Of a stretch of DNA of 64,000 nt, positions 30,496 to 31,368 are shown one piece after another; the first letter of the stretch is position 1; each line of letters opens with the position of its first letter. The notes under the pieces are model-generated. The model was given only the letters and a program-made list of their open reading frames with translations, was not told where the DNA came from and searched no databases. A program made the translations under genes and the position numbers. Origin of the DNA: Chitinophagaceae bacterium (lineage in GTDB: Bacteria; Bacteroidota; Bacteroidia; Chitinophagales; Chitinophagaceae); contig SAIW01000006.1 in the NCBI GenBank assembly GCA_004028795.1, positions 613,541-677,540 of the forward strand, written 5' to 3'.

Positions 30496-30509
30496 GTTGC
30501 GTCGCACAC
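30496..30509 (-). repeat. Copy b of dispersed intergenic repeat (minus orientation)
   Basis: Plus strand reads GTTGCGTCGCACAC; extended match about 30 nt. Confidence 0.8.
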
Positions 30510-30534
30510 TTGTACTGTTGTACACTAATGATAA

Positions 30535-31317
30535 TTACCGATCGGCTTGTTCATCCTTATGGTTTTTCTCTAACTCATTCTGCAAGTCATCTATATAAGA
30601 AGATAGCATTTGGAAGTTATCAGCGAAATCTAATGCTATTGAAAGTAAATCCCTAAGATAAAAAAGCATTAAATTGATTGATAAATCAAGCTTGCCTTTT
30701 CTGTCCTTAAAATCAATTTTTCCAGATATCGAAGTCCAGTGGCTTAAATGGTCATACTTAGAATAATAATTATAGAGATTGTATATTGCTTCATTTGATA
30801 CATGTGAATCTTTGCTGATATTGTAAATTTCAGATGTCTTCAAATAATAGCCCTTCTTTAAAAGTGGTTTACCATTACCTTGATTAAAAGCTTTTGAGAA
30901 TTTAGAGATGAATTTAGCTGAGTATTCTTTTTTTTGTATTGCTGATAAATTTTCAGAAGAATCAATTTCATCTAAGAAATACTTAGTTCCATCATTTAAT
31001 ACTTTCAAGCAATATTCTTTTATTTTCTCTTTTACAATCTCAAAGTTATTCCCATCGTATTCTGTACAAATTTTCTTAACATGCATTAACAAAATCATAT
31101 CCATCAATATAGACCGACTCAAAATGCCTAATGAAAATTCAATTGAATCATCTAGTAAAGGATATAATTTTAAAAAAGATGAAGATATTTTCGTAACCTT
31201 TTCAAGGCCACAGAAAACCAACCTATCAATTTCAAATTGAGTCTTGTTTACAAAATGTCTTTGTGCATTTAAAGATGTCTTAAAAATCAACTTTAAATAT
31301 TGCTCTATTTTTTCCAT
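30535..31317 (-). CDS. Hypothetical protein encoded by a very AT-rich gene (possible horizontally acquired cargo)
   Basis: 260-aa ORF in a region visibly more AT-rich than its neighbours; flanked by inverted copies of the intergenic repeat. Confidence 0.5.
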   Translation of the reverse strand: MEKIEQYLKLIFKTSLNAQRHFVNKTQFEIDRLVFCGLEKVTKISSSFLKLYPLLDDSIEFSLGILSRSILMDMILLMHVKKICTEYDGNNFEIVKEKIKEYCLKVLNDGTKYFLDEIDSSENLSAIQKKEYSAKFISKFSKAFNQGNGKPLLKKGYYLKTSEIYNISKDSHVSNEAIYNLYNYYSKYDHLSHWTSISGKIDFKDRKGKLDLSINLMLFYLRDLLSIALDFADNFQMLSSYIDDLQNELEKNHKDEQADR

Positions 31318-31354
31318 AAATCATTTTTTGTTCATTTATCATTCTCCTGCACAA

Positions 31355-31368
31355 GTGTGCGACGCAAC
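31355..31368 (+). repeat. Copy c of dispersed intergenic repeat
   Basis: Exact 14-mer core; ACAAGTGTGCGACGCAACTATAGCTAAAT. Confidence 0.8.

Follow-up and report, generated by a model that had tools for sequence, protein, structure and literature searches.

A variable gene slot beside rtcB in Chitinophagaceae, bordered by a copy of a family-wide intergenic repeat

How does a small AT-rich gene come to lie between two inverted copies of an intergenic repeat, inside an RNA-repair operon? This arrangement is found in a stretch of 64,000 nucleotides (nt) from a Chitinophagaceae bacterium (contig SAIW01000006.1, positions 613,541 to 677,540), here called the window, where a gene for a protein of 260 amino acids (aa) is situated between the gene of the RNA ligase RtcB and a gene of the SPFH/Band-7 family. 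The original prediction described an orphan gene without a recognisable domain, likened its flanking repeats to terminal inverted repeats around a small cargo, and considered both an insertion hotspot and a role in abortive infection. Our analysis indicates that the gene at present probably occupies a hypervariable slot within an RNA-repair operon that is conserved in Chitinophagaceae, that the occupants of this slot are probably exchanged, and that the flanking repeats are ordinary copies of an intergenic element, hereafter called E. The locus consists of the following features.

28896-30359, minus strand: RtcB RNA ligase, the conserved right flank (PF01139, 2.4e-81)
30456-30530, plus strand: E copy, antisense to the operon, between the slot-gene stop and the rtcB leader, with its core at 30496-30507 (nhmmer 4.5e-18)
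30535-31317, minus strand: slot gene with an ATG start, encoding an all-alpha protein of 260 aa from an uncharacterised family
31329-31406, minus strand: E copy, sense, directly upstream of the slot gene, with its core at 31357-31368 (nhmmer 1.3e-13)
31452-32591, minus strand: SPFH/Band-7 protein, slipin-like, the conserved left flank (PF01145, 1e-31)

The Pfam matches agree with the rtcB and SPFH neighbours that had been named from the sequence. Comparison loci from other genomes are given L-numbers in the following. The adjacency of Band-7 and RtcB is kept in 13 loci, and a member of the slot-gene family is situated between the two, in the same orientation, at eight, each from a different genome (the window, L001, L005, L124, L126, L128, L129 and L135). 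The slot was surveyed in five operons that had been looked up by a Band-7 match (Band-7 identity 75-80%) and in L049; over all operons with an alternative state of the slot, the identity of Band-7 is 73-82%. Between Band-7 and RtcB, different Chitinophagaceae carry at least five mutually unrelated gene types, or no gene at all. The other states of the slot are listed here.

L165: HEPN_AbiV gene (Pfam 1e-21, PADLOC AbiV 2.3e-07)
L049 and ERZ27297570: RlaP RNA-repair-pathway nucleotidyltransferases
L166 (Lacibacter sediminis): uncharacterised 328-aa protein with a weak PD-T7-1 match (2.9e-04)
L168 (Lacibacter sp. H407): DinB_2 protein
L167: empty slot, with 181 nt from Band_7 to rtcB

The congeneric L166 and L168 thus differ in their occupant. 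Every occupant is AT-rich compared with its flanks, the GC content at third codon positions (GC3) being 0.21-0.36 for the occupants and 0.32-0.59 for Band-7 and RtcB. Among the occupants, AbiV is a known defence match and PD-T7-1 a weaker one; the window gene itself has no match in PADLOC. The slot is a variable-gene or defence-type hotspot between conserved flanks, as the original prediction had considered. It resembles described hotspots of this kind in that genes of atypical composition, unrelated to one another, take turns at a single position, and some of them match anti-phage proteins. It differs from them in holding one gene only, in lying inside an operon between functionally linked genes, and in having a specific repeat element as its left boundary.

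This boundary was located by three comparisons. L005 and L049 share 90.5% identity as far as +38, counted from the start of the E core, and are unrelated beyond, while L166 and L168 align up to +42 of E and again from 6 nt before the rtcB ATG. The window and L165 have the hairpin past Band-7 and the E copy in common and diverge after the core. In all three cases, the left edge of the gene swap is the downstream edge of a sense E copy. The right edge was seen in one comparison (Lacibacter), where it lies just before the rtcB ATG. The window, L001, L005 and L128 have a sense E copy before the slot gene, and in L124, L126 and L129 this copy is interrupted or degenerate. It also precedes the other occupants, namely AbiV in L165, the 328-aa protein in L166, DinB_2 in L168 and RlaP in L049, and the window copy is orthologous to the slot-upstream copies in L128 and L165.

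The copy on the rtcB side behaves differently. An antisense E copy before rtcB was found in the window, L126, L129 and the empty L167, whereas it is absent from L001, L005, L165, L166 and L168. The variable part of this copy is clearly orthologous among L126, L129 and L167. That of the window copy differs; here, the grounds for orthology are the position and the rtcB leader that comes next, which has the same CACAAAG repeats as in L126 and L129. Since the antisense copy is kept in an empty slot and missing from most filled ones, it belongs to the upstream region of rtcB and not to a cargo. What brackets the gene in the window are two E copies that face the slot in a long-standing arrangement, and these are not the ends of a transposon.

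As predicted, the slot gene is flanked by inverted repeat copies. The arms at 30477-30513 and 31351-31387 are 37 nt long and 89% complementary, and the 25-mer given in the original prediction matches at 30489-30513 on the plus strand and 31351-31375 on the minus strand with 0 mismatches, compared with 0 matches in 100 shuffles. The distances had to be corrected: the 25-mer lies 21 nt from the coding sequence on the stop side and 33 nt on the start side, instead of the 26 and 38 nt given, and profile alignment places the inward edges of the full elements 4 nt and 11 nt from the coding sequence. No convincing target-site duplication was found. The only flank common to both outer repeat ends is the 5-nt TTTTA, in a T-rich context with fuzzy element boundaries; a match of this kind is expected by chance in such a composition.

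The slot protein is entered at NCBI as MBA4195961.1, a hypothetical protein from a metagenome-assembled genome of an uncultured Chitinophaga sp., and it was seen on 57 contigs. Its gene is as AT-rich as claimed, with a GC content of 0.283 compared with 0.341 for the window mean, 0.345 for Band-7 and 0.372 for rtcB, which is rank 2 from the bottom among the 51 open reading frames (ORFs) of the window (z = -2.0). Its orphan status did not hold. In total, 57 homologues with 29-58% identity were obtained at E<=0.01, distributed over Chitinophagaceae, Ginsengibacter, Chitinophaga and other Bacteroidota, and a profile search with the family returned 268 cluster representatives at E<=1e-3. In the same database, the 57 matches of the slot family compare with more than 7000 for Band-7. 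The slot protein changes more rapidly in evolution than the proteins beside it: within the same genome pairs, the slot proteins are 47-58% identical and the flanking proteins 65-79%. The original prediction had proposed to compare the rtcB neighbourhood of relatives, where a gene found in all of them with unchanged composition, and with flanks that lack the repeats, would speak against it. The outcome is mixed. The gene does recur with the same low GC content in several relatives, and the upstream repeat is kept there as well.

Other members of the family stand alone. The homologue in L130 (51% identity) and the distant relatives (25-40% identity) are all situated away from RtcB, and the neighbours of these stand-alone relatives include SSB, resolvases, excisionase-type helix-turn-helix proteins, relaxase/TraG, DarT, GmrSD, WYL/WCX and RadC proteins and IS3/IS110 transposases. 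Their surroundings are mobile-element and defence-island contexts. No E copies were found beside the stand-alone homologues, and no relatives of the family among the viral contigs of IMG/VR. The proposal of an abortive-infection candidate is supported by position and context: an AbiV gene fills the same slot in L165, and relatives of the window gene lie in the contexts just described.

The simplest mechanism of exchange would be a transfer between relatives followed by homologous recombination in the conserved flanks, which are Band-7 and E to the left and rtcB to the right. The junctions lie at the ends of conserved sequence, as such recombination would give. Transposition of a repeat-bounded unit would not be needed, and the manner of exchange would be that of a defence hotspot.

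To what kind of protein does the window gene correspond? As the original prediction had it, no domain could be recognised: searches of the slot protein against Pfam, NCBIfam, PADLOC and PHROGs gave zero family matches, none of 104 diverse members of the family matched Pfam, and sequence and profile searches against the PDB found nothing. The AlphaFold2 model (pLDDT 91, pTM 0.88) predicts an all-alpha protein of ten helices, for which a Foldseek search against the PDB and BFVD likewise found nothing. Among the 104 diverse members, R68 and H190 alone are invariant, while G64, D73, Y182, S186, K187 and Y188 are nearly so, and the family shows a YSKYDH motif. In hhalign comparisons, the slot family reached a probability of 0.3-0.6% with the AbiV family found in the slot and nothing with DinB_2 or the 328-aa slot genes. 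The slot protein was not filed as a HEPN protein, since the Rx4-6H motif of HEPN is absent from the slot-family alignments (R68 and H190 lie in different helices, 122 residues apart) and the AbiV profile comparison was negative. It differs in both respects from the AbiV/HEPN family (PF18728, PADLOC AbiV), to which it has no detectable homology.

We tentatively propose, as a possibility with clearly less than an even chance, that the slot protein may target RNA, as an effector or as an end-processing factor, and that RtcB could reseal its products. This idea is derived from the company of an AbiV RNase, RlaP and DinB_2 in the same slot, from conserved residues of which Arg and His are invariant and Lys, Tyr and Asp nearly so, from the defence and mobile-element contexts of relatives, and from the chemistry of RtcB, which ligates 2',3'-cyclic phosphate ends with 5'-OH ends (PMC11090510). 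The protein would then be a soluble helical bundle acting on RNA, and the conserved residues would fit a metal-independent RNase chemistry that leaves a 2',3'-cyclic phosphate and a 5'-OH, the substrates of RtcB. Combined, slot gene and RtcB could form a cleave-and-reseal module for which Band-7 and the tRNA-like RNA of the operon would serve as scaffold.

Several observations weigh against this picture of exchanged, RNA-acting occupants. The GC deficit of the slot gene resides in the first and second codon positions (z = -1.8 and -1.9), while its GC3 is average for the genome (z = +0.14), so that in the low-GC genome of the window a foreign origin of the gene is not evident. The homologues outside RtcB operons, in L130 and among the distant relatives, indicate that the slot family does not require RtcB. 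The slot protein has no sequence or profile link to any characterised family, and it lacks the conserved Rx4-6H motif. Finally, the mechanism of exchange is deduced from the positions of the junctions alone; neither a recombination intermediate nor strain-level polymorphism was seen.

The main alternative for the slot protein is a non-catalytic adaptor. In this case, the protein would be a non-enzymatic accessory subunit, for instance an adaptor or regulator that links Band-7 and RtcB. It would be inherited largely vertically, and its low GC content would arise from a composition rich in Lys, Asn, Ile and Tyr and not from a foreign origin. The average GC3 in the window and the deficit in the other two codon positions agree with it, as do the conserved position and orientation in eight operons and the lack of a catalytic-family match of any kind. 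Furthermore, the slot gene overlaps rtcB by 8 nt in L001, suggesting translational coupling. However, in relatives of higher GC content the GC3 of the slot gene is 0.21-0.32 compared with 0.34-0.59 for its neighbours, and close relatives hold enzymes (AbiV HEPN, RlaP, DinB_2) or nothing in the slot. An invariant Arg and His in combination with a conserved Lys, Tyr and Asp would rather be expected where a protein has a catalytic or ligand site, and relatives stand alone in mobile and defence contexts. We regard the adaptor as rather unlikely, and an exchanged occupant of a variable slot as the better description of the gene.

The remaining alternatives assign an active role to E and depend on the nature of this element. 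An nhmmer profile built solely from the copies of other genomes finds exactly six E copies in the 64-kb window, and the E core GTTGCGTCGCAC occurs six times there, always between genes. Besides the two copies at the slot, these are:

7446-7528, minus strand: E copy (nhmmer 1.2e-12)
49053-49123, minus strand: E copy (nhmmer 5.1e-12)
51757-51857, plus strand: E copy with a 19-nt palindromic insert, CTGCCTACCGGCAGGCAGG, in its core (nhmmer 0.04)
55407-55493, minus strand: E copy (nhmmer 3.5e-18)

Inserts of 18-30 nt within the otherwise invariant core are located at 51796-51835 in the window and at about 4660-4700 in L124, 5880-5925 in L126 and 4900-4950 in L129. With one genome per species, the exact 20-base core matched at least 118 stretches, nearly all from Chitinophagaceae or Chitinophagales, and the genera that carry it include Hydrotalea, Sediminibacterium, Flavisolibacter, Segetibacter, Niastella, Lacibacter, Flavihumibacter and Paracnuella. 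Alignment of 173 distinct copies gives a length of about 85 nt. A T-rich block (tTTTtTg) is followed by CCgGC, about 17 variable positions of fixed length, ctatt.aGCTtt, the core GTTGCGTCGCACACTTGTAC and a weakly conserved tail to about +45. At orthologous sites, the core is preserved while the variable segment drifts. Nearly all copies (179 of 184) are intergenic, and their orientation relative to the flanking genes is about 50:50. We therefore take E to be an intergenic element that is under constraint and occurs family-wide. The palindrome TGCGnCGCA lies within its invariant 20-nt core, for which reason E is most likely a DNA motif recognised by a protein. The element is apparently undescribed so far; a literature search with the core matched only two unrelated plant papers.

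Other roles were considered and rejected. A structured RNA or riboswitch was ruled out, because RNAalifold on 173 copies gave no consensus structure and no covariation on either strand; the comparison of E with Rfam yielded no match either at the gathering threshold or at E<=10. A promoter or 5' leader does not agree with the genes downstream of E, which comprise 81 same-strand gene starts and 78 convergent gene ends. The Bacteroidetes promoter pattern TTTG-N17-21-TAnnTTTG was found 3 times in the window compared with 6.1 expected, and this lineage may use promoters unlike the Bacteroides consensus. An intrinsic terminator or small RNA gene was rejected on the number of downstream terminator-like hairpins, 9 compared with 12 in the control (of 155), and a small peptide on the stop codons in the variable part and a core without third-position variation. 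The T-block is equally conserved whatever sits upstream of it. A strong hairpin just upstream of the block occurs in about 17% of the copies after a gene end but in about 1% of those beside a divergent gene start, and the T-block could act as the U-tract of this hairpin.

The spacing of E copies follows a clear pattern. Of the pairs less than 200 nt apart, 34 of 35 are convergent. Pairs separated by one gene (600-2000 nt) are convergent or divergent, never tandem, and tandem pairs are missing within 2 kb and common at larger distances. The absence of close tandem pairs could reflect the instability of direct repeats, or the way in which the element arises. Most genes that lie between convergent copies are ordinary ones with a normal GC content, such as those for lipoyl synthase (lipA), a Gfo/Idh/MocA oxidoreductase, and LutA-like, SPFH and DinB-like proteins; between convergent pairs, GC content is slightly lower than between divergent ones (p = 0.02-0.04, small n). 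Two AT-rich genes were also observed between convergent copies, one of 269 aa with an RKAAMH stretch and no Pfam match (L067 4237-5422) and one of 259 aa (L025 5980-6919). When all loci were compared with each other to find clean insertion polymorphisms of E, no pairs emerged beyond those described here, and the sole case of presence versus absence is an indel in a Lacibacter tRNA array (L168 2130-2354 versus L166 1608-1612) that comprises one tRNA gene and one antisense E copy.

Family-wide intergenic repeats are known from other bacteria as ERIC/IRU in Enterobacteriaceae, Correia elements in Neisseria and REP/REPIN. E resembles them in being multi-copy, intergenic, independent of orientation and shared across genera, often as inverted doublets that can fold into long hairpins. 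In contrast to these elements, a single E unit has neither a palindromic hairpin nor covariation; only its convergent doublets fold into long hairpins, and the constraint is confined to the 20-nt core and a few flanking blocks. The variable segments also differ among copies within one genome, unlike those of a recently spreading miniature inverted-repeat transposable element.

Could E be the recognition site of a dedicated site-specific recombination, so that the DNA inside a convergent pair is an exchangeable or invertible cassette and the slot gene one such cassette? The three independent swap junctions at the downstream edge of E (+38 to +45) would fit, and so would the convergence of 34 of the 35 close pairs, with zero tandem pairs within 2 kb. 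The invariant core with its TGCGnCGCA palindrome, next to positions that vary freely even at orthologous sites, and the slot coding sequence, which exactly fills the gap between the inward E edges, point in the same direction. However, the analysis identified no recombinase, in Lacibacter the junction on the right lies at the rtcB ATG where there is no E copy, and plain homologous recombination would give the same junctions. The gene has the same orientation in 8 of 8 operons, giving no sign of inversion, and the genes bracketed by E are mostly housekeeping genes of normal GC content. Site-specific recombination at E is therefore considered improbable.

In a bolder form, E would be the docking site of an undescribed gene-exchange mechanism of Chitinophagaceae that has plugged a new RNA-cleaving effector into the RtcB operon. 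We consider this a long shot. If true, the DNA between inward-facing E edges would be swapped as a cassette, and the operon would be a programmable 'cut, then reseal' RNA defence module.

Weakest is the proposal of a small non-autonomous mobile unit, with the two repeats as its terminal inverted repeats, by which the gene was brought into the interval between rtcB and the SPFH gene: despite the long, highly complementary arms close to the coding sequence, the recurrence of the sense-antisense bracket in L126 and L129 and the slightly lower GC content between convergent copies, it is very unlikely, as the sense copy marks a swap edge and stays while the cargo changes, the antisense copy, with a variable part orthologous to those of L126 and L129, is present at an empty slot and missing from most filled ones, stand-alone homologues have no E copies beside them, convergent pairs also enclose ordinary genes (lipA, Gfo/Idh/MocA, LutA-like), TTTTA is the only common flank, and no transposase for such a unit was found at this locus.

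The exchanged occupant that we favour is embedded in an operon with the order tRNA array, RNaseH-like protein and AAA ATPase, tRNA-like RNA, Band-7, slot and RtcB. In the window, the features beyond those already given are:

30365-30455, minus strand: rtcB leader, in which CACAAAG/CACAAGG units recur and GCACAAAG...CTTTGTGC form an inverted repeat, read directly from the sequence
31415-31449, minus strand: hairpin just past the Band-7 stop, with 13-nt perfect arms and a 9-nt loop, followed by TTTTAAAACAATTTTTG
32833-32961, minus strand: pair of tRNA-like/YrlA-like non-coding RNAs upstream of Band-7 (Rfam)
33169-33684, minus strand: RNaseH_like protein, a conserved operon member (PF04308, 3.5e-34)
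33695-34864, minus strand: AAA ATPase, present in most of the operons (PF00004, 1.2e-10)
34941-35435, minus strand: tRNA gene array adjoining the operon, likewise in L001, L005, L049, L166 and L168

The features of the rtcB leader are kept in L126 and L129, and its repeats may be a site of regulation or part of a structured leader. The hairpin past Band-7 looks like a terminator, yet it did not satisfy the terminator criteria of the scan tool; the same hairpin is present in L165. In L001 (6746-7845) and L124 (3456-4552), Band-7 was called as two ORFs of 66-86 aa and 280-299 aa, which could be due to a frameshift or a sequencing error. The RNA pair upstream of Band-7 scores 33.7 and 29.1 bits with the Rfam tRNA model (gathering score 29), while the match to the YrlA model (36 bits, E = 3.2e-06) stays short of the gathering score of that model, 69. 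ARAGORN called neither of the two RNAs at 32833-32961 as a tRNA. The pair was found again in L005 and L049, and its members are candidates for the band-7-associated tRNA-like RNA. Elsewhere in the window, Rfam places a DUF805b RNA motif at 4586-4621 on the plus strand (42 bits, gathering score 35.6), upstream of an ORF at 4640-5653.

To our knowledge, the targets of bacterial RtcB repair and the reason for its linkage to Band-7 and tRNA-like RNA are largely open. The arrangement of RtcB, Band-7 and band-7-associated tRNA-like RNA is attributed to Burroughs & Aravind 2016 in bioRxiv 10.1101/312249, and P. aeruginosa PaFlo8 is an example of SPFH genes inside rtc loci (PMC13086221). The present operon agrees with these systems in that RtcB, an adjacent Band-7 gene and upstream tRNA-like/YrlA-like RNAs are all present and conserved, and in that RlaP, a named RNA-repair nucleotidyltransferase, is among the alternative occupants of the slot. 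It differs in the slot gene of the window, which appears to lie outside the described component families. Modular RtcB repair operons and defence-type variable slots are of known kinds; to these the locus adds a protein family not characterised so far and a repeat, distributed family-wide, that is apparently undescribed.

Taken together, a variable slot for a single gene is kept beside RtcB throughout a bacterial family, and its occupants, which include an AbiV-type RNase, RNA-repair nucleotidyltransferases and uncharacterised proteins, tie the operon to RNA-targeting conflict systems. These occupants represent a set of natural swap variants. The locus also brings to light an abundant element of about 85 nt with an invariant 20-nt core, whose edge coincides with recombination junctions.

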